Source: Callorhinchus milii (taxonomy: Eukaryota). From it: a stretch of DNA of 64,000 nucleotides. The stretch lies in NCBI RefSeq assembly GCF_018977255.1, contig NW_024704742.1:133054001-133118000 (forward strand). Direction: 5' to 3'. Positions 2,975 to 53,808 of this stretch are shown here, in pieces. Each line of letters starts with the position of its first letter. Position 1 is the stretch's first letter. Position numbers and translations under genes: made by a program. The notes under the pieces were generated by a model. That model did not search any database. It was given only the letters and a program-made list of their open reading frames with translations, and was not told the DNA's origin.

Positions 2975-3330
2975 CAGATATCCTTCGGGGCAGTTTTCTG
3001 CAGTGACTATGTGAACACAGCAGCAGATTTTCACTGTCTCACGAACAGCCATGACGTAAATGTCTTTTTTTTAATTGAGGAGGAGTGGAAATTGTTAGTC
3101 AGAAGCCAGGAGAAGCACCCTTCTCATTTTGAATAGTGCCATGGGATCCTTAACATCCACCTGAACAGGCAGATAGGATCAGTTTAACGTCTTGGCGAAA
3201 GATTAACTGCCCCCAGCACTGCATTGGAGTGTCAGCTTAGACTACGTGAGTTCAACGTCCCGATGTGGCGTTTGAATCAACAACCTTCTGCTTCAGAGGC
3301 AAGCGTGCTACCACTGCGCCAGGCCAACAC
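2975..3330 (-). mobile_element. Deu-domain SINE
   Basis: Reverse complement of the family at 10-435. Confidence 0.7.
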
Positions 3331-3864
3331 ACAAACCACTCGATCACTTCAACTCCCAACTCAATGAACTGATGAGTTGAGTTTCAGTCAGTGATCAGCT
3401 TTGAAAGGCATGTCGATTATCATGGAAATTTAAATTTTCTCCCCGCTTTTCTACCACATCCTCTGATATCTATAAACTGCTCTGAATGCTTCCCTCATGA
3501 ACTGATTTAATGTCTTCACAGGGAAATACAAATAATCATTATTCTACCATCCCGTTCCCCCTCAGGCTTGGTGTAGTGGTTGGGTCAGAAAATGTTCTGC
3601 TCCGTCGCAGCTGCTTATCTTTGAGTTTTGCTTCTGAGTGGATAAAATACAATTTATATTTATATACAGCGCCTTTCATGTCCCAAAATGCTTTCACAGA
3701 TCTGGATGGGCACTCAAGCTGTGGGTGGGAACTGATGGAAGTGGGTAGTGGAAAGATGCCCGAAAGCACAGTCAAAGAGATAAGTTTTGAAATGTGTCTT
3801 GAAAGAGAGGAGGGAATCAGTGGAACGCCACGTCAAGCCACTTTTTAAATGAATCCCATTGTAC

Positions 3865-4095
3865 TGGCCACGACAACATTTTCTGGTAACCCTGTTCCAG
3901 TTCTTAAATACCCTCTGCATTGAGAAAAACTTCCTGGTGTCTGTCCTGGAATTGCCATTTGTAACTCTAAACCTCGTGTGTCCTCTTGTTCGACTGTCTT
4001 GGTACATCCAAAAGTACTGAGTTTACTTTTTCAATCCCATTTAAAATTGTATACACCTCTATGAGGTCCCCTCTGAACCGTCTTCTCTCAAAACA
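3865..4095 (-). mobile_element. CR1 LINE ORF2 3' fragment
   Basis: Translates to ERRRFRGDLIEVYTILNG and RTRGH..FRV....RTDTRKFFSMQRVFKNWN, the CR1 ORF2 C-terminus. Confidence 0.85.
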
Positions 4096-25420: not shown

Positions 25421-25996
25421 AGCAAACGTCCTTTCAATTGTCCAATTAAAAATCCGTCAAATTCAAGAAGAACAAAAAAATGAAAGGAGTCTCTGTACAT
25501 GTTAATTTCTCATTACTAATAAATGACCAATGCTGTCATGTCAGGGTTACGCTTTTCGCTGCCCCTTTTTTCCATGAAAATAGTTTAACTGTCAAGGTCA
25601 GGGGGGAAATAGTCAGTAAACATCTTAAATGGGATAATATTGTCTGGCTAGGAGCTTTCGCCAGATGTACAGCACTGGCAGTGGGATGTTGCTGAAGGAA
25701 TAGAGTTCCTGTCATTATTTAATCCTTTCTATCCCTCATTATAAAATCTATTCATTCCACAGCACCTTGTTATCTCTCTGATCTTCTCACTCCCCCTTTC
25801 TCTGAGCCAAGTCTACGCCCCCTAAACCTTGGAGCTTCCTCCCACTATCCCTCGTCCCCATCCCTCCTCTATCTATCTTCAAATCCCACCTTAAAACCTA
25901 TCTATTTGACAGCATCTACACTCACCTCCCTCCTTCTCCCTCACTTGGCCTCTACCCTGTCACTGTGAAGCACTCCCCTGTGTGAAGAGGCTCTGT

Positions 25997-26520
25997 TGCA
26001 AGATGTTTGGGTTTTATAAGCAACCCTCACTGGGTGAAGTAAAGATGCATACAAATCTTGGGCACAAATTGTCGAACTTTATTCATTCAGATTAGTAAGG
26101 TCATATGATTGGTAGTCAAAGAATACAACAGAATAATGTTTACATATCTATCAAATAAATAAATATATCAGTATATTCTGTAAAGCGATTTGAGACGTCT
26201 AGAAGACGTAAAAAGCGCTATATCAAATGCAAGGATTATTATTATATCCCATGTACAGTTGAACAACAATTAAGGTTGGCGAAACCAAAAGTTGTGGAAG
26301 AGATGGAGGAGTAATTGTCTGTTCGATCACCAAAAGGTATCCAGGTACTGCCGTGCTGCTAATAGCTGGTGAGCGTCGATAAAGATGTTGAAAGTTGGCG
26401 AAGTCTTAAATTTCAATCTTCTTTCTTTAGAGCTGGAATTCGGTTTGCGAACACCCAAGTTTCAACTCTCTGTCTCTTCTACTTTCGTTAAGAATTATCC
26501 TTTGTTGAAACACTCCCTCC
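25997..26520 (-). repeat. 3' LTR of the ERV (U3 end apparently deleted, SINE fragment inserted at about 26168-26245)
   Basis: tgcaagatgtttgggttttata matches tgtaagatgtttggttttata at 30818; 26400-26500 aligns with 30859-30953; AATAAA on the - strand at 26078-26083. Right boundary approximate. Confidence 0.8.
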
Positions 26521-26886
26521 TCAGTCACACCTAGTGAGTGTATTATTATTTGATTTATTCGATTGATTTAGTTCCTATGTTTAAGCAAAATGCATATCTC
26601 ATTTTGCTACAACATAGGAACGTACAATGTAAAGGATATATAAAATAAATCGGAGTATTTACAAGTAATATTGGGATTGTCATTATTATAGCATAATAGC
26701 ATATATAGAATATACCTGTTCACCAGGATATAATGTCATACAGCTAAGATTGGAACGTTTTGTTTACACTCTATAGATTCCTAACCCTTCAAATCTTTGC
26801 AATACTACATTTATCTCAAAGCAAATCTGGCACTATGCCCATCTTAATATCACACAACATATTTCAAATCATTTGTGTAACATATG

Positions 26887-27020
26887 CTTAGGAAGGACAA
26901 GTTTGCAGGGCTTTGGTGAGAGAGCGGGGGAGTGGGTTGAATTGGATAGTTCTTTTCAAAGAGCCAGCACAGACACGATGGGCCGAACAGCCTCCTCTGT
27001 GCTGTAGTATAATTCTATGA
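26887..27020 (+). mobile_element. CR1 3' tail inserted in the ERV env
   Basis: CR1 3' UTR ending ttctatga, flanked by atatg on both sides; its removal restores the env frame AYGSY|VTQMI. Confidence 0.8.
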
Positions 27021-27846
27021 TATGATCCATAGGCATTGCACACTATGGATAAAGCAATTTCATCATTTTCTTTAGCATTATTTCCAATAATTTCATTAAT
27101 CTCATTTGGGTTTTGTTTCAAAAATTCTGCAATACCTTTCATATTAAATAGGGTAAATCATCTTTTGCTGGTTCTTTTATTCCTTCTATCGCTGGATTAA
27201 CTGCTTCCCTTTACTGTACATTTTCGAAAGCATGCAAATGTGGCTTAACAGTATCCAAATCTGATCGATTCCAAATTCAAATCCCAGACCCCAAAATTCC
27301 TGTTGCTGTACCTCCTATCCCTATCCATCAGCTAACATTTGTCTCATAGTAAAACTGTGGGTATCTGTAATTTCCTGATTGATTATAGGGTAATCCACTT
27401 TTTGGTGAAATCGAATCATTCTTTCAATCAATGATGCATCATAGAACATATTATAACCTTTATATTTTGGTTGTTCTTTTACTTCCCATTTGGTCAAATT
27501 CAAAACTACTGGACTGCGGATGCAGTGGATATTATTGATCAATGTACCTTCCTCCTCTTGTCCTAGTCAATCCTGAGGCAGGCCCTTTAAACAGAGGAGG
27601 GCATTATTTTGTTCTTTTATTTTCGTTATGTTCCACTGTACATTCTGTGAATTCTTATTTTCTGCAGCAAGGCTGAACATCCATAATCCCAGTTTGAGTG
27701 ATTCCCATCAATTTAAGATTCATTTCTCCATTTTCTTTTCCCACTAATTCTAATTCCAAATCCCATCCAATTTTCCTTGAATCATAGATTCTTTTGCCAT
27801 CTCAATTGAGTATGTCACATTTTGACACCAAAATTTTTGATTAGTT

Positions 27847-28260
27847 CAACAACAACAACTTGCATTTATATAGCGCCCTTCACGCTGGACAGCGTCTCGG
27901 AGCGCTTAACAGTGCGGAGCCCATTGCCGAGCCAGGGGGAGGGGGAATGTGACCATAGGCGCAGTTGAAGAGGAAGGTGTTCAAGCGCAACCTGAAAATG
28001 GGGAGAGAGGGGGCAAGGCAAAGGATTGAGGGAGAGTTTCACAGCTTCGGGGTGCAGTGACTGAAAGCACAGCTGCCAATGATGGGCGGAGGATCCAGAG
28101 GACAAGGAAGAGGTCAGAGCCAGTCGAGCAGAGGCAGCGGGTAGTAGTGTAGGGAGAGAGCAGGTTGGAGGGATGGGGGACGGGGGTCAGGGCATGAAGG
28201 GATGTAAATAGAAGAGTGAGGATCTTGAAATCGATCTGCTCATTGACAGGGAACCAGTGG
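27847..28260 (-). mobile_element. L2 3' fragment inserted in the ERV env
   Basis: L2 ORF2 end and (TTG)n tail on the - strand. Confidence 0.85.
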
Positions 28261-29317
28261 CATTTTCATCACCTAATGGAATGGTTACTTAATTTGTATA
28301 TATTCAAATGAAGTGTTTCATTCCATTCTTGGATCCTATTATATTTTCAATGCATAATTATTTCCCCATTTTATCCAATTCCTTTTATCTGATGTGGCTG
28401 CAGTTTTTGTCTGCTTTCAGATTTGACTGGTTTTGTTAGGAAAGGGTCACTCTCACATTCACTGGATAAGGTCCCGCTTCCTAAGTTTGAGAAGGATCTA
28501 CCCCTGGTTCTTGTATAAGTATGCGATATATTCCTGAATCTACAAGAGTTACATTAGAAATTTGTAGTGTTAATTTATAATAATAATCTTTGCATTTGAT
28601 ATAGTGCTTTTTATGTCTTCTAGACGTCTCAAAACGCTTCACAGAAATAAACTGTAAAGTGAATTGACTGTATATTTGTCCAATACTGTTTACAGTCGGT
28701 CTTTATAATGCACATCAACAAATGTTCTGCACTTTGAAACGCCAAAAATTAAGGGAACATCCAAATCCGCATTACACGCTGCCACGTTGTCGTTCTAAAA
28801 TAATCATCTTGTGTTATTGGTTCCTTGACAACCTCATTCTCTTTTACCAATCTCCCCACCATTTTCTTTGCGGTCTATGGTATTTTATGGGTATTAGCAG
28901 ATCACTTCCCACTTCCACTAGGATTTCAGGTTCCTCCATGATTGTTTTTATGTTTCGCTTTATATATTTTAAATTGCTTCTCCTTGGTCTATCTAATCCA
29001 CTCTGCCCTTCAGCTGTTCTCTGTCCTTCTCTTATTGTATTTCTCACAATAGCTTCCACTTCTCTGCATTCCCGTTAGATGTGTTATGTGCATTTTACCC
29101 TCCTTCATCCAATGTACTAAAATTAGCACCACTAAGAATATCATCTTGTTCTTCATTTTTCTTGTCTCCGACGCTTTGTTTTCTGTAACATAATCAGGAA
29201 AAGTGAAATGACCCTCCCCTTATTCGAGGTGAAGTCAGGAACCTCCTCCAATTTTAGGATACTTATAACAAATGTGTATGTCGTTGTCCCTTTTTCTTTC
29301 TCAATCTGGGTTGTTGA

Positions 29318-29580
29318 TAATAATATATATTGCATTTGATATAAAGCCTTATCACGTCTTTGAGATGTCGCAAAGCGCTTTATAGAATATACCGTAAAGT
29401 GAATTGACTGTATATTTTGTGGGCGAAACGCGGCAGCCAACAACTGGGTTCCTATTTACTGCTTGGTAATCAAAGGTGTGTGGAGTAAGGAAACTTGTCC
29501 AATGTATCGCCCTGCCTAGGAATCGTACCCAGGTCCTCTCGCTTGCGAGGCGAGTGCTCTAACTAAGCTACCAGACTCCA
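29318..29580 (-). mobile_element. tRNA-Ala SINE located at the large pol deletion of the ERV
   Basis: Head and tail present, middle deleted; flanked by the RT start on one side and the env-proximal region on the other. Confidence 0.85.
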
Positions 29581-29581
29581 T

Positions 29582-29830
29582 TTCTATGGTCAAATGCCAT
29601 GATCCATCTGTTTTTCTAAACAGCCAAACGGAGGAGTTGTTATAGAGGTTGCAACTGTTCTTAAAACGCCCTGTTGTAGTAACAAATCACTTAGTGTCCT
29701 GCACACATGAATCAGCTTCCCAAGGAAAGTAATATTGTTTTTGAGAGTGTGGGGGATCATCACTGGTAATCTTAACTTGCCCTTCTAATTTACCACAGCC
29801 GTGTTTGTGATTTGCAAAAGCAACACTTTG
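29582..29830 (-). pseudogene. Retroviral reverse transcriptase N-terminal remnant
   Basis: FANHKHGCGKL..VKITSDDPPHSQKQYYFPWEA..VQDT / DLLLQQGVLRTVATS / NNSSVWLFRKTDGSWHLTIE with two frameshifts matches the retroviral RT QxQY...LLxQGV...NSPVWPVxKxDGSWRLTID pattern. Confidence 0.88.
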
Positions 29831-29929
29831 AGTGGTCAGTACATTAGCAATGTTAGCATTGTCATGCGTTGACAATTTCTTTAAGTTGTTTCTTTTATTA
29901 CGTAAAGGGCTCCATGATCTGTTATTGTA

Positions 29930-30242
29930 TTCCAAAAATGTGTAACGGGTTTGACACTTTTAACTTGCCATAATAATAATTTATTTGTAAATGTCTTATC
30001 TGAAGTGGAATTGGAAGTGATTCCACCCCATATTGAGAATTGTCTGTAAACCCACCTAATGGCATAACTATCTGAGATGTAAACTACGAGGTTTGTAGCT
30101 CTTTTTCACATACAACAGCTCGAGAGGCACCAGTATCCAGTAAAAATAATTTGTAATGATCTCCTATCGCAACAAATATACATGGTCTCCCGTGACTATC
30201 GATTTCTACAAGGCACATTATTTCTGTGGAGGCCTCTGATTG
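29930..30242 (-). pseudogene. Retroviral aspartic protease remnant
   Basis: Manual translation: EIDSHGRPCIFVAIGDHYKLFLLDTGASRAVV...*FTSQIVMPLGGFTDNSQ...; DTGA codons at 30126-30137; one internal stop. Confidence 0.9.
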
Positions 30243-30245
30243 TCA

Positions 30246-30540
30246 ATCAGAGATATTAGGAACTCCATTAACCTTGCCTCCCCCTTAAATGAGACATATC
30301 GAAGAGGCACTAGGACTCCTCCCTGCCTGACCTTGTATAGCTTTCAGTTCCTCTTGCAGCTTTCCAACTCGAATGAATTTGTCCTATTACGTCTTTTATT
30401 CCCAGACTGGCACTTTTCTCTTTAATTCCATGTTTTTCGAGCTCAGTAAATCTGCTTAAGGTATTCAATCCATGCAGCTTTAGTTTGGTTAGCTTTCACC
30501 ACCTTTTTCTATCTTAATTCTGCAAAAAGCCATCCACACA
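30246..30540 (-). pseudogene. Probable gag remnant, heavily deleted
   Basis: Lies between PBS and protease; fragments CGWLFAELR and ELEKHGIKEK only loosely resemble class III gag motifs. Confidence 0.4.
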
Positions 30541-30797
30541 ACAACAGCAACTTGCATTTATATAGTGCCCTTCACGCGAGTCAGTGTCCCAGAGCACGTC
30601 TCAATCAGAGTGTCACTTTGTTAGTGCCTCCTTAAGAGGAGGGTAACTTTTCCTCCACATTTTCATTGAATTTCATAGACTTTCACGTTTTTAGAATACT
30701 TCTTCTAATCCTGCAACTTGGTCGTTTCAGTTCAGTTGACTACCCCTTTTTTTAATATAGCCAAAGATTTGTACTCATCAAACTTCAACACAATACG

Positions 30798-30815
30798 GTA
30801 CCTGTTTGGATACCA
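30798..30815 (-). promoter_or_regulatory. Degenerate primer-binding site, tRNA-Lys3(UUU)-like
   Basis: TGGTATCCAAACAGGTAC versus the canonical Lys3 PBS TGGCGCCCGAACAGGGAC: 13/18 matches, 4 of the 5 differences are transitions; 2 nt downstream of the LTR end. Confidence 0.6.
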
Positions 30816-30817
30816 AT

Positions 30818-31337
30818 TGTAAGATGTTTGGTTTTATAGACAGTGTTGACAGTCGTCTAAGTCTCAATTCGATCTTCCTTCTTCAGAAGCTGAAATATGG
30901 TTCGTGACTCCAAGGTCCAACTTGCTGTCTCTTCTTTTGTTGAGAATTATCCTTACATTTATATCTTTATATCTTTATATCAATGATACACATTGACTTT
31001 GTAAAGACATCTGGCATTCAAGCTCCACAAAAACATATTTTTAGTCAGATGGTCTCCTCCTGTCCCCAATATCCATAGTTGACAACACTCCCTCACTTTT
31101 ATCAAATCTCTAGCAGTTTGTTTTACACAAGTCTGAGTACCACCGATTTAACGTCCATTGTGTAGTTAACAACAATGTCTTATTAATGATGATGCTGAAA
31201 CTTTGTGTTCGGTAAACATGCTTCCACTGTCCTTGGTCTTCATACACCTCCAGCTTTTCTGAAGCAAACCAATCCATAAGTCTCTACGATTTTCCTTTGG
31301 TCAACTCAAGCAACCCAGAGTTCTGGGATTGCTTACA
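30818..31337 (-). repeat. 5' LTR of the ERV
   Basis: Termini TGTAAG...CTTACA, followed after 2 nt by the PBS; triple TATAAA-like repeat at about 30958-30980 (- strand); shares blocks with 25997-26520. Confidence 0.85.
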
Positions 31338-34300
31338 CTGTAAATGAAATAGACTCATTTAAAAAGCAGATGGGGGAATGGTAGGGTGGGTGTTGTTGAA
31401 GGCTGAGATTTGGATGGGTTGAAGAGCCTTCTTCATCTTGTGATTTTGTGAAATGCTCTTTGACAACACAGTGATTGTGAAACTTGACTTTTGCTTTTGC
31501 TGTTGGAATCTGCGGGCTGTTTCTGTTATTCCATTATTTTTTCCGCGTGATTTGCTGAGAAAGAAGAGTACTAACATCCTATTCTAACACTGTCAAATCA
31601 TGGGCTTGGAAGTTCTGTTTGGCTGGAGGCCTTGCATTGAATGGTAAGTTCTACATATCATTCAGATATTAGCCAGTCGAATTTGCTCACCATTTCATTA
31701 GTTTGTGTGAGCTGTTTACTTAAAAGTCCCATTTCACTACCTTTTCTCCATATCTCTCATCCATATTCATAAGGCAGGATCCACAATAGATTTCAGAGGA
31801 AAGTAAATATTTGAAAAAAGAGTAATTTAACAGGGGTACGTATGTAACAATTACAACAATAACAACTTGCATTTATATAACGCCTTCTTGCAGGGTAGCA
31901 TCCAAGAGCGCTTACATACATGTATGTGTGTGTGTGTTTGTATGTATGTGCATATGCATGTATGTATGTGGGAAAGATTGGACAATGGGACTGAATGAAT
32001 TGATCTTTCAAAGAGCCAAAAGTGGGCTGAATGGCTTTCTTCTGGCTCAGTGGGGTCCTAAGAGATCAGAGGTGGGCAAGCTTGTGGAGGGGTTTGAATT
32101 TGAGCACAAGGGTCTTGTATTCAGTCCTCAGGGGAGGGGGGAGCCAGCAGAGCTTAGTGAGGACAAGAGGGTGGACTCACAGAGTCTTATACAGGAGAGG
32201 GAGATGGGCTGCAGAGTTCTGGGTGAAGCAGAAGTGGAGTAGATCTCAGTAAAACTAACCTGTAACGTTCACAGTTCTCCAAGTATTAAACAAAATAAAA
32301 TATGCATTTGGGTCAGCGCCTACACCTCACCTTCAAAACACATTTCTCCAGCTAATTGCTGTCAAGTGCAGTGATTGTATAATTTGTTAGGCAAACACAG
32401 CAACAACAACTTGCATTTACACAGCACCTTTCACATAGGATAACATGTTGTAGCGCTGCACAGTGGTGGAGTTGGAATCTGATGATGGAGGAGGTTCAGA
32501 GATTAGAGGTGCAGTAGCTGAAGGAAAAGCAAGGAAAAGCTAAATAAATATGTAAATGATAATAACAATTTGGTCACTCAATCCATAACCATTTTTGAGA
32601 CCTTGCTATGTGCAATTGGCTGCCCCCGTTTTACCCACAAAATATACACTTTTCATTACCGTATAGTTCTTTGAGACATCTGAACAACGTGATAAGGCGC
32701 TATATCAAATGCAAGGATTATTATTATTATGTCCCATAATATTCAAGAAATGAATGAATTTATTGTTGCGCACTGTTGGTCAGGACACTGGGGAGAAAGT
32801 CTGTCCTGTTTTTGAATGGTGCCATGTGGGGGAGTGAAACTCCACCCAGGTTTAGATTTGCTCTATTTGGCAAGAGTTTCAGAGCGCTCAGAACCTGGAA
32901 AGAAATGACAGGAAAAAACAGCATTAAAAATTAAGACGTGGATGTAAGAATTTGTCCAATTCTGGATACTCTGAAATCTTAAGAAAATAGAGTAAATCTA
33001 GACTCGAGTGGAATATTTCCCCCGAGTCTTTTAATGTCCACTGAACAAGTAGACAGGATGGCAGCAACAACAACTTACATTTCTATAGTGCCCCTCACGC
33101 AAAGTAGCGTCCCAGAGCGCTTGACAAAGACGGAACATGATATCGAGCCAGGGGAGATGACCGTAGGTATGGTCGAGGAGAAAGGTCTTCAAGCTCGATC
33201 TGAAGATGGGGAAGCAACAACAACAAGATTACATTTCATGTTGATAGGACGTCCCAAGGCGCTGGACAGTGCACAGCATTTCAGACCCAAGCTGGGTTCA
33301 GGGAGGGAGAAGGGAGGGCAGGGGAAGGGGGGTCAATGGCATGGTCGAAGAGGAGGATTTTGAGGTGGGCTTGAAGGATGCTAAGGGGGGGCGAGACGGA
33401 GTGATTGGAGATGGAATTCCAGAGGTTGGCGGCAGAGTGGCTGAAGGCTCTCCCGCCAATGGTGGGGTGGGTGGGTCAGGGAACGTGGAGCAGCCAGAGC
33501 CAGCTGAGTGGAGGGAGCGGGCTAGTTTGCAAGGAGCAAGACAGAGTGATAGAGGAAGAGTGTTCCATAATTTCCGGACCAGAAGGTTGTGGGTTGAAGC
33601 CCCACATTGGGCCTTTCAGTTCATAGTGCTCACTCCATTGCACTGTGCAGCATGTTGGAGGTACCGTCCTTCAGATATGTTAAACCAAGGTCCCGTCTGC
33701 CTGGTCGAGTGGATGTAAAGGTCCCGTGGCGCTATTCAAAAAGAGAAAGGAGTTTCTCCCAGTGTCATGGCACGACCTAGCAAGACAACGACTTGCGTTT
33801 ATATAGCACCCTTCACATGGGGTAGCGTCTCGGAGTGTTTAAGATAATAATAATCCTAATATATAGCGTCTTATCATGTCTTCGAAAAGCCTCAAGGTGC
33901 TTCACAGAATATACTGTAAAGTGCATTGACTGTATATTTTGTGAAACAGGTTAGAAGCCTGGTTGGTGTGTGACCCGTAACAACGAGAGGGAAAGGGGGA
34001 GGGAGGAAAGAAACGAAGCAAAATCCTTAATAAAATAGATTCCATGGGAATGATTTGAAAGCTTTAAAATCATCTCAGGTTCAGATGGTGGTTAGATATC
34101 AAAGCTACCCCAGTATCTGACATCATTTGAACTCAATGAGATTACTGCCTTTTAGTCACTCTTGGGTATCCCTCCATAACAAAGTTTATTGAATTTCCTG
34201 TGGGCAACAATAACTGTGTATTTTTGTAGCATTTGACTTTGGATTTAGGCAGATTATTTTCTCATGTTTTCTTATCGCTGATCTCCTTATATATGCCCGA

Positions 34301-37239: not shown

Positions 37240-40158
37240 GGCTTCGCAGGGTTGACGGACAGCAACAAGTCGGGTAAGATCCTGAAGCAGCAGTCCAGCT
37301 GCTCCATGATCGTCTCTCCTCCACCTTCAACTCCCTCGCCCCCCTGAAATCCAGGACGATCTCCAAACCCACCCGATCCCCCTGGTACGACAACCATCTC
37401 CGCCGCCTAAAAACCCAAACCCGTCTGCTCGAGCGCAGATGGCGGAAAACTGCCTAACAGTCCACTGCCAACTGTGGCTCGAGCATCTCCACAGCTACCG
37501 CCGTTCTTTAACACGCGCAAAAACAGCTTTCTACTCCAATATCATCTTGGAGGCTAAACACAACCCCAAAATCTTTTTTCCACCACCCATTACCTCCTCC
37601 GTGCCCCCCCTCAGGCCTCCTCAATCTTCGTATCAAATGCCAAGTGCGAGGAGGTCATGTATTTCTTTTCATCTAAAATACTTAACATCCACCAGGCAGC
37701 CTCATGCACCTTGTCACCCACCACCACACCCTCTCTGTCCCCCTCACCCTCTTCATCATCTGCTCCTATCACCACCTCCATCCTACATTCCTTCCTCCCC
37801 ATCTCTTCCTCCTCCCTCTCATTCACCATCACCTCCATGAAACCCACCACCTGCTGCCTTGACCCCCTCCCCAGCAACTTACTGGTCACCCAGCTCCCCC
37901 TCCTCTGCCCACTACTGGCTGACATCATCAATCAGTCCCTCTCCTCCGGATCAGTCTCTGCCTCCCTCAAAACTGCTGTCATCGCGCCCCCCCCCTCCTG
38001 AAAAAAACCCTCCCTAGATCCCTCAAACCCCAACCATACCGCCCTATTTCTAACCTGCCCTTCCTCTCAAAAGTTCTAGAACTCGTTGTTGCCCACCAAC
38101 TTCGCGCACACCTCTCCTCTCACTCCCTCTTCGAACCCCTCCAGTCCGGTTTCCGCCCACAATACAGAGACTGCACTGCGCTTGTGAAAGTCACAAACGA
38201 CATCTTCTCTATCTGTGACCAGGGCCCCCTCTGCCTCTTTGTCCTCCTGGACCTCTCCACCGCATTCAACACAGTCAATCACGCCATCCTCCTCCACCGC
38301 CTTTCCTCCGTCATCCACCTCAGTGGGACCGCACTCGCCAGGTTCGACTCCTACCTCACAAACCACCAGAAGTACATCTGCACAAACAGCTTCTCCTCCC
38401 GCTCTCACCCGATCACCTGCGGGGTACCCCAAGGATCCATCCTTGGCCCTCTCCTCTTTCTGATCTACATGCTCCCTCTTGGGGATGTCATCGCCGGTCT
38501 TCCCGCCACCTCCCTCCACAAGCTGCAGATCATTCAGAACTCTGCAGCTCGTGTACTGTCCCGCACCAGGCTTCGGGACCACAACACTCCCACCCTCGCT
38601 CGCCTCCACTGGCTCCCCATCCCCCAGAGGATTGATTTCAAGATCCTCATCCTCACCTACAAGGCCATTCACGGCCTTGCTCCCTCCTACCTCTCCGACC
38701 TACTATCCCCCTACCTACCTGCCCGTACCCTCCGTTCCTCTGACTCTGGTCTGCTCCACGTCCCCCGCCCCAACCGCCCTACCATCGGTGGTCGGGCCTT
38801 CAGCCTCTCAGCCCCCAGGCTCTGGAACTCCATCCCCCAGTGCCTTCGCCTTGCTTCCTCCCTTTCCTCCTTCAAGGCCGGTCTCAAAACCTTTCTCTTT
38901 GACCGTGCCTTCAGCTCCCCTCTCGACTCTCTTCCCCCTCCTCGCCCCTCCCTTCCCTCCCCTCACCCTGACCATTTCCCCCCTCCTCGCTCCCTCCCTT
39001 CCCTCCCCTCACCCTGACCATTTCCCCCTCCTTGCTCCCTCCCTTCCCTCCCCTCACCCTGACCATTTCCCCCTGCTCGGGTCATGACCCAACTGTGCAG
39101 CGCCTTGGAACGTCCTCCTGACGTGAAAGGCGCTTTATAAATGGAATCTTGTTGATGTTGTTGTTGTTGTTGTTGTCATCCGCAGACATGGGGTACACTT
39201 CCACATGTATGCAGACGACACCCAACTCTATTTTTCCACCTCTCTTTGTGATCCCCAATCCCCTGATGTTCTGTCAGTATGCCTGTCAGACCTCAGGGGC
39301 TGGATGGGCGCAAATTTCCTTCAGCTGAACGTTGACAAGATGGAAGCCATACTCTTTGGCTCTCGTCAACGTCTAAAATCTCATGGCTCTCACCTCCTCC
39401 ATCTATCCGACCTCCCACTAAAACTCTCCGAACCCGTATGCAACCTAGGCGTCAGGTTCGACCCCCAATTATCCTTCCTCGCAAACATCCGGCCCCTCAC
39501 CAGCACCGCTTTCTTCCACCTCCGACGCATCGCCGTCTCCGCCAATACCTCACTCCAAAAGCCCCTGAAACCCTGGTCCATGCCTTTGTCACCTCTCAGC
39601 TGTCACCTCTAATGCCCTCCTCGCCAGCCTCCCCTTCACTACCATCCATAAAATCCAAATCATTCAAAACTCTGCCGTCCGCATTCTCACCCGCACGAAA
39701 CTTCGCTCCCCGATCACCCCAGTCCTTGCCAGACTGCACTGGCTGCCTGTCCCACAGAGGATCACCTTTAAGATCCTCACCCTTGTCTTCAAATCCCTCC
39801 ACTCTTCTGCATCCCCCCTACCTCTCTGACCTCCTCTCTCCTCAAAACAGTACCTGTTGCCTTTGTTCCTCCAGTTCTGGCCTACTCCTCGTCCCCTGAG
39901 TCCTACGCTCCACCCTCGGCGGTCGTGCCTTCAGCCACTATGCCCCGAGGCTCTGAAACTCCCTTCCTCACTCCCTTCGCCTCACTCCCTCCCTTTCTAT
40001 TTTCTGGTCTCTGCTGAAATCCTTTCTTTTCGACCGCGCCTTTGGTCATCTTCCTCCCCCTTCCCCTGACCCGGTCCCGGGATCTGTTACTGTGAAGCGT
40101 CCTGAGACGCCTTCTGGCGTGGAGGGTGCTATATAAATCCAAGTTGTTGTTGTTGTTG
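37240..40158 (+). mobile_element. Long L2 LINE ORF2 remnant, split by a nested L2
   Basis: PWY...[62 protein letters not shown], then MYADDTQLY after 39180; (TTG)n tail at 40158. Confidence 0.95.
38493..39173 (+). mobile_element. Young L2 3' fragment nested in the older L2
   Basis: TSD TGTCATC at 38486-38492 and 39174-39180; has its own tail and a short tandem expansion in the 3' UTR (about 38935-39075). Confidence 0.92.
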
Positions 40159-51425: not shown

Positions 51426-53084
51426 CTATTCAGGTGGCCATTAAAGATTCTGTTAAAGATTAATAATAATAAATAATAATCCTTGCATTTCATACAGCGC
51501 CTTTCTCACCAGAAGGCCATATCAAAATGCTTTGCAGGAATTACTGTAAGCTATAGTGACTGTATATTTTGCAGTCAAAATCCCTAACGTTTTATAGTAC
51601 ATGGCGTCCACAAAGTCCTCTTACAATTTTTATGGAAAGGGGGAACATTGTTAAGACTGCGATGCAAGGGAGAGTTAAGCCATGTCACAGGGCCTGTTAC
51701 AATACAGCGACATGAGACTACGGAGAAGCTGAAACAAGCTGTCAGAGATAATGTCGCCTCCTCACTCCATCCATGTTAAGGAAGCTGTTGTACCGAACAA
51801 GGCGATGGATCATCATCTGGCATGAAAGTGATGGCGCTCAAATACATTTAAACACTTGTACTGGATACAATGCAGTACTTCTAAATACAGTAGAATTATC
51901 ATCATTCTTCCATGTTTCAGCTGTTGGTCAGTGCACTGTAGAAAAAAACATGGTGCTAACAGGACTTGTGAATACCCTGTACAGCCCGGCTAGGCACTGT
52001 GACATGCCTGACCACCCGCGTGTTAACTCTCCCTTGCATCGCGCTGTGGGAGGGAGCCTGCCCCAGTCTTGACAACCTCCCCCCTCCCCAATGCATGGCT
52101 CTGTTTAACCGATCAGCTTCTTTCCTCCAAGAGACAAAGGCTCACTGTACATTTCAATGAGGGAGATGAGAGTGTGGGGACGTGGGAGGTGGGGTGGGGG
52201 TGCGAGGGAGGGTAGATAAGAGAACTTCTTCAGCGATTTCCCACATGTTATTCAAAATCCCCAGCGCATGACAATAGCTTGACCCGAACAGCAAAGCTTT
52301 GGGACAGTGTGTGTTTAAGAGGGTAGTTTCCATAAAAATTGTTTTCCATTCTCAGTGATTTGCAAAGCGAGGAGCCTGAGATTCTAATCTTTTATAGCGA
52401 CCCCCGCAACGCAACAATACAGCAGGGACCACCCAGGAGCAAGGGATCCTTCTCACAGGTTGTCGGGACTTTTTGAATACAAATATAGTTTTATTTGGGG
52501 GGGGAGCGGAGTGAATGGAGATCTTTATCTCTTGTTTTTAAACCTTGAGCCGCCCCTCCTCCCCTCCTTTCTCTCTCCCACTTCCCTCCGGCTTCCTCCC
52601 CCCACCCCGCCACCACCTTTCCATCTGTCCATCTGTCCTGGTAACTTTAAAATCTTTTTTATGGTTGAGAAAAGTCTGGTAACAGCCTCTGTGTAGCCAG
52701 CTGGTGTGTTGTGGGTATTGAGAAAAAGCACTTACAATCACTTCCGCTCCCAAAACAGCACCCATTGTGTAACTAATAATCCTCACAGCTGAGGTAGGTC
52801 CTGGAACCTCGCAAAGGTAATGTCTGTCAACCCCAGTGACTGTATTTATAGGCGAACGTGGCAGCCAATTTGTGAACAGCAAGGTTCCAGAAACAGCTAC
52901 AAAATGAATGACCAGTTTTATCTGGGAGATTGTTGGCCAGGAAATCAGGAGAAATAGGGTCTGTTTGATCTTTTAACGTCTATTTGAACAGGTAGACTTA
53001 AGCGCTTTGATATGTCCTCCTGACACGAGAGTCATCCTGGAGGCAAACAACAATCCAAAGACACTGTTTTCCACCGTTCATCAC

Positions 53085-53808
53085 CTCTTCTGTGCACCCC
53101 CTTAAGTCTCCTCTATCCTCACTCAAACGCCAAGTGCGAAGAGGTCCTAGACTTCTTGGTTGCAGGTCAACTTTCGTTGCATTGTTGCAGGTCAACTTTG
53201 GTCACACCTCTCCCTCCACTCCCTCCTTGAGCCCCTGCAGTCTGGCTTTTGCCCTGCTCACAGCACAGAGACACCACTTATCAAAGTCACAAACATCATT
53301 CTCTCTATCTGTGACCAGGGCTCCCTCTGCCTCCTCGTCCTCCTGGATCTCTCTACTGCATTCGATACGGTCGACCACCCAATCCTCCTCCACCGCTTCT
53401 CCTCCCTCATCTACCTTGTGGGACCACACTCGCATGGTTTGGGTCCTACTGAACCAACCACCTCCACTTCATCTCAGCGAACGGTTTCAACTCCCGCCCC
53501 CAACCCGGTCACCTGCGGGGTACCCCAGGGCTCCTTACTTGTCCCTCTTTCCCTTATCTATATGCTCCGTCTGGGCGATGTCATCAGACACGGGGTAAAC
53601 TTCCACACGAATGCAGATGACATACAAATCTACTTTGCCTCCTCCAGTACCAACTCCAGGTCCGCCAGTATTCTATCAGCCTGTCTGTCAGAAAACAGGG
53701 CCTGGGTGAGTGCAAATTTCCTGCAGCTCAATGTGGACAAGACGGAAGCCATACTTCTTGGCTCCCATCAAAGTCTTCATTCCTATTGAAGTGCAAGTTG
53801 TTGTTGTA
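53085..53808 (+). mobile_element. L2 RT fragment
   Basis: LQSGFCPAHSTET..LLDLSTAFDTVDH..CGVPQGS..NADDIQIY..NFLQLNVDKTE. Confidence 0.92.

Follow-up and report, generated by a model that had tools for sequence, protein, structure and literature searches.

A decayed snakehead retrovirus-related endogenous retrovirus in Callorhinchus milii with an apparently undescribed envelope architecture

The 64,000-nucleotide stretch of the Callorhinchus milii genome analyzed in this study (contig NW_024704742.1; hereafter the window) contains a real but badly decayed endogenous retrovirus (ERV). The provirus remnant occupies positions 25997-31337 on the minus strand, with TGCAAG at 25997 and CTTACA at 31332-31337 as its ends, and very probably belongs to a family related to snakehead retrovirus (SnRV). 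The envelope protein (Env) of this family is probably of a non-gamma, F-type class that carries captured immunoglobulin (Ig) heads. The features of the locus are listed below in the 5' to 3' direction of the element; other genomic loci are given L numbers and proteins P numbers throughout.

31338-31341, no strand assigned: right copy of the target-site duplication (TSD) CTGT, by sequence comparison.
30818-31337, minus strand: 5' long terminal repeat (LTR), with its distal block deleted relative to paralogous LTRs.
30798-30815, minus strand: primer-binding site (PBS) for tRNA-Lys(TTT), matching the host tRNA-Lys(TTT) plus CCA at 13 of 18 positions.
30243-30797, minus strand: gag remnant, internally deleted, with the zinc knuckle gone and a nested repeat at 30539-30596.
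29980-30242, minus strand: aspartyl protease remnant with an LLDTGA motif (Pfam RVP; 75-85% to paralogs).
29582-29980, minus strand: start of reverse transcriptase (RT); the remaining RT, RNase H and integrase are deleted.
29312-29581, no strand assigned: nested repeat at the pol deletion point (54 window matches).
29150-29316, minus strand: region directly downstream of integrase (69-74% to the post-integrase region of L028, L029, L031, L034 and L035).
29109-29156, minus strand: signal-peptide-like start of env, a Met followed by a hydrophobic run (similar start in L045; signal function judged by eye).
28490-28935 (approximate), minus strand: Ig V-set-like domain remnant lying after the env signal peptide and before the env body; a repeat at 28576-28680 interrupts it.
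27619-28489, minus strand: unassigned spacer of about 450 bp between the Ig remnant and the env body, split by an insertion resembling a long interspersed nuclear element (LINE) at 27845-28261.
27022-27618, minus strand: N-terminal part of the env body, with stops and frameshifts (profile matches with independent E-values of 2.2e-9, 4.4e-7 and 2.9e-5).
26889-27021, no strand assigned: nested repeat inside env (repeat matches and depth).
26484-26888, minus strand: middle part of the env body, broken and ending at the deletion into the 3' LTR (profile match at 26672-26484, independent E-value 0.0013).
25997-26505 (end approximate), minus strand: 3' LTR remnant, matched by the LTRs of paralogs L043, L009, L002, L024 and L044 from about 26505 down.
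26167-26246, no strand assigned: nested high-copy repeat tail inside the 3' LTR (39 window matches; depth peak).
25993-25996, no strand assigned: left copy of the TSD CTGT, by sequence comparison.

The initial annotation of this stretch had already proposed an ERV with these termini and the CTGT duplication, together with the minus-strand order of PBS, gag, protease, RT start, large pol deletion, env and 3' LTR, and remnants of all of these parts were found. The pol deletion is confirmed by paralogs that retain tether, RNase H and integrase at that place. The two LTRs, on whose similarity that annotation had made its claim depend, align significantly over a short distance (118 bp, 75% identity, E 9e-15, searched against the whole window), the overlap being small because each LTR lost a different part; a 23-nt terminal match is also common to both. 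Compared to paralogous LTRs, about 400 bp of the U3-side start of the 3' LTR is gone together with the C-terminal half of env, while the inner LTR edge, TGTAAG, begins at 30818. The 5' LTR has at least 43 genome matches besides itself, with 69-89% identity (best 40 of 210 candidates scored). An exact 4-bp duplication was observed at 3 of the 15 other LTR starts tested and an exact 5-bp duplication at none of them, where chance would give approximately 0.17 exact 4-bp matches among 43 candidate ends. The PBS is better preserved in six paralogs, which match tRNA-Lys(TTT) at 15-17 of 18 positions. The claim that removal of the element restores an L2 tail is weakly supported: the left flank is a repeat tail (69%, E 2.5e-6), putatively L2, but on the right flank only about five bases continue it by eye. 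L021/L022 and L023 were rejected as LTR pairs, with no matching gag or pol and, in L023, only a short env-side match.

Six later repeat insertions interrupt the element, in addition to deletions, stops and frameshifts, and the LINE-like insertion at 27845-28261 has 22 matches in the window. Four sequencing runs (at most four samples from two studies) all cover the element, and the contigs listed span the left junction for X1 and the right one for X2, X3 and X5; no empty-site joint was present among the joints listed for those runs, a further 1153 joints not being listed. Divergence between the LTRs (Kimura two-parameter distance, K2P) is 0.23 over 110 sites, too few for a date: the 2.2e-10 rate assumed in PMC4422223 gives approximately 500 million years, which is not credible, and a mammalian rate approximately 50 million years. 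The window copy is dead, without sign of co-option. Longer LINE-like open frames lie at 37310-39896 and 53011-53786, and the window shows no conspicuous long coding frame of the host.

Most of pol being deleted in the window, the class of its Pol was judged on paralogs found with the window DNA. The window protease frame (30084-30242) matches Pfam RVP at E 0.0015, slightly short of the curated cut-off, and the RT start (29863-29582) has 37-41% identity to intact relatives (E ~1e-14) and 71-79% DNA identity to that of paralogs. Tandem CCHC zinc knuckles are present in the Gag of five paralogs (L027, L029, L031, L034 and L035), and a dual RNase H (tether plus RNase H), deleted in the window, in paralog L031; a homolog search with the family RNase H gave no match. 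The RT of the family copy L032, for which 19 relatives were found among 90 candidates, is 63-65% identical to frog (Rhinophrynus), coelacanth and one unnamed protein, 54% to SnRV, 42% to the loki-like L056, 34-40% to class I-like RTs and approximately 40% to foamy RT (a by-eye count of 49 in 123 columns). In a 31-row RT tree (L050, being too short, was left out), the family belongs to a group of 21 rows (89/90) that also contains Rhinophrynus, Latimeria and Xenopus proteins; SnRV lies just outside this group, a long-branch loki row is outside as well, and class I-like rows stand apart. A second tree of 20 rows without the loki row agrees (SH-aLRT 92). By eye, the RT motifs of the family follow the SnRV row and not the FLERV, foamy or loki rows; the SnRV label itself belongs to P0029, whose RT reads, also by eye, like the SnRV row in the supplement of PMC7947760. 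Among the paralogs, L035 and the region G000:C1:13270000-13326000 hold three equal-scoring family copies in about 55 kb, one of them inverted, which indicates local duplication, and internal inversions occur in L026:2400-4100 (env) and L032:7360-8610 (pol).

Grouping with SnRV apart from class I has moderate support in trees without foamy or ERV-L rows, and the element is very probably an SnRV-side ERV of class III, within clade Huo as defined in PMC6001957. The class III placement in a snakehead, foamy or loki neighbourhood made in the initial annotation is therefore supported and, by the RT identities and trees, narrowed to the SnRV-related side. A lokiretrovirus was rejected on RT identity and motifs. 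The 4-bp TSD, which had been read as pointing to spuma-related lineages, does not do so by itself, as table 1 of PMC4299795 gives ERV1 a 4-bp duplication and ERV3/ERV4 one of 5 bp. ERV3 and ERV4 in the Repbase sense would combine a 5-bp TSD with the lack of a zinc finger, while this family has a 4-bp TSD and zinc knuckles; with knuckles in its paralogs, the element is also probably not a foamy virus, whose Gag would be without them.

The env body was recognized with an Env profile built from intact natural proteins, which maps onto window positions 27618-26484 and many paralogs; the claim of an env was thus upheld by remnants with independent E-values from 2e-9 to 1e-3, while the Ig-like domain ahead of it had been overlooked. 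A phmmer search of 1.84 billion proteins with one L025 frame (X at stops) identified two relatives only, P0002 (749 aa, E 1.6e-19) and P0003 (584 aa, E 4e-7), and tblastn with P0002 finds the N-terminal part of the window's env body (E 2e-8). P0002 leads to P0005, an intact 757-aa protein of Lithobates pipiens annotated as uncharacterized, in whose cluster 6 of the 14 members are named frog proteins. In the frog Env proteins, a basic motif precedes a Gly-rich stretch, and there are 18 cysteines and a hydrophobic helix near the C terminus; the basic motif is missing from P0003. In the window, a Gly-rich, fusion-peptide-like stretch near 27327-27280 is followed by a helical region, and paralogs L024, L025 and L026 run on into a Cys-rich half and a transmembrane (TM) anchor beyond the window's env break. 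No Pfam match was found for the env-like frames of the window, no relevant Pfam match in six frames of the 27619-28489 spacer, and no paralog for its 28270-28500 part.

The CX6CC and immunosuppressive domain (ISD) motifs are absent from P0002, P0003, P0005 and the L067 frame and present in the control L063, and none of these four shows the combination of TLV_coat, ISD and CX6CC that marks a gamma-type Env. Both halves of the loki-like L056 Env can be aligned with the frog Env body (z 5.3 and 10.6, 0/300 shuffles each), compared to z 0.3 for a gamma-type Env. Since a link between loki Env and paramyxovirus F is reported in PMC7947760, it is fairly probable, from sequence comparison, that the Env body has an F-type core. 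Searches of PDB sequences with Env were empty or gave chance matches, with no sequence match to foamy Env; scans of IMG/VR with the RT and the Env alignment gave no match; and the ESM Atlas gave no usable match, then one unnamed chordate cluster at 0.79.

Between the signal peptide and the env body, the window's Ig remnant matches Pfam V-set at E 0.0041 (E 2.4e-4 in paralog L043) and is common to L043 and L044 (77-89% DNA identity) and partly to L045. A similar arrangement was observed in the natural proteins: the N-terminal stretch of P0002 matches V-set at E 0.045 in the same open reading frame (ORF) as its Env body, and all six weak PDB matches of the frog N-terminal domain are Ig-superfamily chains. 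A genome search with P0003 gave 30 matches, and 15 loci were examined next. An Ig-like domain lies directly ahead of env in L067, L069, L070 and L071 (4 of 21 frames scanned). These loci (L067:5650-7750 and L069:2180-4000 among them) make up a second group of ERVs that has the same class of Env and an N-terminal Ig with two cysteines; this Ig has weak PDB matches to contactin-2 and further Ig proteins. In L069, a single frame with one stop contains signal peptide, Ig and env start, and the Ig scores 23.2 bits with Pfam ig, above the 21.8 cut-off. No Ig match was found in L072 or L026, and no Pfam match for a possible second Ig repeat in L043 and the window spacer; the short L043 Ig piece gave only a chance match in the PDB. 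Taken together, it is likely that the Ig is part of Env in the window family.

Several other loci touch on these comparisons. The same Env class also occurs in L060, L046, L047, L068 and L072-L079, which are more diverged copies or families. An SnRV-side RT occurs together with a gamma-type Env (TLV_coat, ISD, CX6CC) in L063:7005-7763 and L053, and L067 and L069 adjoin these loci in the tree, their RTs belonging to the same clade. Since L063, with its gamma-type Env, adjoins the Ig-Env carriers L067 and L069, env types were exchanged within the clade. L056 (G000:C548:24000-33999, RT near 3290-4000) is loki-like, its RT reading by eye almost as the lamprey Loki-Pma row in the supplement of PMC7947760, which has 0 loki in one Chondrichthyes row. 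It has eight strong matches (95-100%) on seven high-numbered contigs and none on large contigs, and a GC content of 48% compared to approximately 42% for another locus; foreign DNA in the assembly seems likelier than recent cross-class transfer. P0007 (Lithobates pipiens LOC143998072) is a 1397-aa model that joins a frog Env to an unrelated retroelement and is probably an annotation artefact.

Taken as a whole, the reading of the element as a Huo-clade ERV with a non-gamma, probably F-type Env and a captured Ig attachment head is probable, with some reserve, and a number of observations weigh against it. For the RT, the bootstrap of the 31-row tree had not settled, both trees were built without foamy, CmiFLERV or ERV-L rows, and the paralogs that supplied the RT show no Ig region. 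For the Env core, hhalign of the frog-type against the loki-like Env is weak (13% probability, E 0.0022), the L025 and L067 frames alone give no clear alignment with the loki-like Env, and Pfam Fusion_gly (PF00523) matched no Env, the loki-like L056 control included. The F-type assignment is an inference because Pfam scans did not reproduce the loki Env-paramyxovirus F link even for L056. AlphaFold gave unusable models for the frog Env (pLDDT 31.5) and the Ig region within it (all-beta, pLDDT 37.7), and a fold search on the latter was uninformative. The best V-set score of the window family is 21.7 against a cut-off of 26 bits, with all family Ig scores below it, P0005 and P0011 have no Pfam match, and the proviral context of the frog proteins was not seen. 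P0003 has the same Env body without an Ig, so the domain is dispensable for this Env class. In the window copy, approximately 450 unassigned bases and an insertion lie between Ig and env body, so its Ig-Env fusion is inferred from relatives.

There are several potential alternative explanations. Foremost among them, given that P0003 keeps the whole Env body yet has no Ig, is a role for the domain as immune decoy or adhesion module, whether it was encoded by an accessory ORF of its own between pol and env or was attached passively to Env. The unassigned spacer in the window copy would suit this explanation, as would the crocodilian ERVs known to carry captured ORFs downstream of pol and upstream of env, or to have had env replaced by nectin3 (PMC4299795); however, the single ORF in the frog proteins, the single frame in L069 and the fact that the sole signal-peptide-like start seen in the window precedes the Ig all argue against it, and it is considered rather doubtful. 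It is somewhat more plausible, yet still short of an even chance, that the Ig domains go back to a single ancient acquisition, with divergence past recognition and loss in certain lineages, and not to repeated captures. The domain has the same position across lineages and the RTs of its carriers sit in one clade, but the three Ig groups (window family, frog, and L067/L069/L070/L071) are mutually unalignable (best z 2.2) even though their Env bodies give strong alignments to the frog one (z 34-43), and by eye only the L069 group keeps the canonical Ig cysteines.

The remaining alternatives concern the identity of the element itself. Foamy RT and RNase H are the best PDB matches of the family RT and RNase H, foamy Env is F-like, and CmiFLERV, the shark foamy-like lineage of Aiewsakun and Katzourakis, clusters with a frog element (PMC5512871), as the Env of the window family does. 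An SnRV RT control, however, also matches foamy first and with a higher score (97.5 versus 91.9 bits), so that this ranking does not discriminate and was rejected as evidence; with the SnRV-like RT motifs, and with CCHC knuckles in a Gag where spumaviruses have none (PMC2717909), it is improbable that the family is CmiFLERV. A recombinant of two insertions, whose parts did not come from one virus, might account for the LTR divergence and small LTR overlap, but the exact TSD on both sides and colinear gene order make it similarly improbable, as do paralogs that join the same parts: gag start with Ig in L043, Ig with env and LTR in L044, and protease with env remnants in L029, L031, L036 and L038. 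Automatic names on some relatives, such as 'Gypsy retrotransposon integrase-like', hint at a Gypsy retrotransposon beside an unrelated host gene fragment. This has a negligible probability given the dual RNase H, retroviral RT motifs, Lys PBS and an Env with fusion-peptide-like and TM regions, where Ty3/Gypsy would show a single RNase H, no env and a metavirus RT; the possibility raised in the initial annotation, that RT and protease group with Gypsy and env resembles no viral glycoprotein, is not what was found.

The proposed explanation is a single germ-line integration of a class III SnRV-related (clade Huo) retrovirus, which would have been primed by tRNA-Lys(TTT) and made 4-bp duplications, followed by the death of the provirus through deletions, stops, frameshifts and the six repeat insertions; integration, priming tRNA, gene order and decay are established. 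Its Env would be a non-gamma membrane fusion protein of type I, with the predicted order of signal peptide, Ig V-set-like domain, short surface part, cleavage site and fusion peptide, Cys-rich body and TM anchor. This layout is shown by homology to intact natural proteins, and may once have been continuous in frame in the window copy as well. The body probably corresponds to the F-type scaffold of lokiretrovirus and foamy Env, as the weak homology to loki-type Env and the literature suggest, and the Ig was most likely captured from a host cell-surface receptor. The Env trimer would be cleaved ahead of the fusion peptide, and the N-terminal Ig would bind a host surface protein. In the frog protein, the surface part between Ig and cleavage motif has only approximately 115 residues, too short for a foamy-sized binding domain, which points to the Ig as the attachment head; the F scaffold is described as accepting receptor-binding modules at its N terminus (PMC11468914). 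On present evidence, there is an even chance that the Ig served for attachment.

Compared to known systems, the Pol lineage is of a known kind and the envelope is what looks undescribed. SnRV-related ERVs of the elephant shark, including CmiERV lineage I, are already published (PMC4422223), and the family shares with SnRV and clade Huo (PMC6001957, PMC4422223) a sister-group relationship in RT, Gag zinc knuckles, dual RNase H and a fish host. LTR divergence is 3.3% in Han's complete lineage I copy, compared to approximately 23% in the window copy, and the SnRV-related ERVs of anamniotes described in 10.1101/2021.11.23.469661, as well as XtERV-S (PMC8278194), carry a gamma-type Env, unlike the non-gamma Env with Ig of the window family. 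Lokiretroviruses (PMC7947760) share the dual RNase H and, weakly, the Env body, but differ in RT motifs and identity; an Ig domain is not mentioned for loki Env in the available text of that source, and 'immunoglobulin' occurs 0 times in its supplement. Foamy Env, a class Ib fusion protein (PMC11468914), is similar in its proposed F-type core with an added binding module, but its receptor-binding domain is a 330-residue insertion with its own fold rather than an N-terminal Ig-like domain. CrocERV31 (PMC4299795) is likewise an ERV outside classes I and II that gained Ig-superfamily host sequence (nectin3), but a whole host mRNA took the place of env, whereas the window family retains its Env, with one Ig-like domain joined to it. 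Lithobates pipiens LOC143963402 and its paralogs (XP_077329155.1) have the same Env body and an N-terminal Ig-like domain; unlike the window copy, this protein is intact, its Ig cannot be aligned with that of the window, and its sole annotation is 'uncharacterized'. Neither an Ig-Env fusion nor a loki-related Env on SnRV-side Pol was found described in the available text of PMC5512871, PMC10699275, PMC6001957, PMC13709493, PMC2717909, PMC9040795, PMC8672886 and two bioRxiv preprints, a scope that did not cover Repbase, preprint supplements and two relevant J Virol papers (cartilaginous fish foamy viruses among them); the envelope architecture is apparently undescribed.

A broader possibility, put forward tentatively and with clearly less than even confidence, is that SnRV-related retroviruses of cartilaginous fish and frogs include an overlooked Env class with a loki/paramyxovirus-F-type core, which captured different host Igs at least three times as an attachment head and is still intact and multi-copy in ranid frogs. 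Screens seeded with gamma- or beta-type Env (10.1101/2021.11.23.469661) would miss this Env class. If true, an Ig joined to Env would give the 'F scaffold plus added binding module' model (PMC11468914) a concrete example, and host genes would have been captured by a new route that differs from nectin3 replacement. A loki-related Env on a snakehead-clade Pol argues for either env exchange between groups or an ancestral F-type Env, a question that becomes testable with natural proteins.

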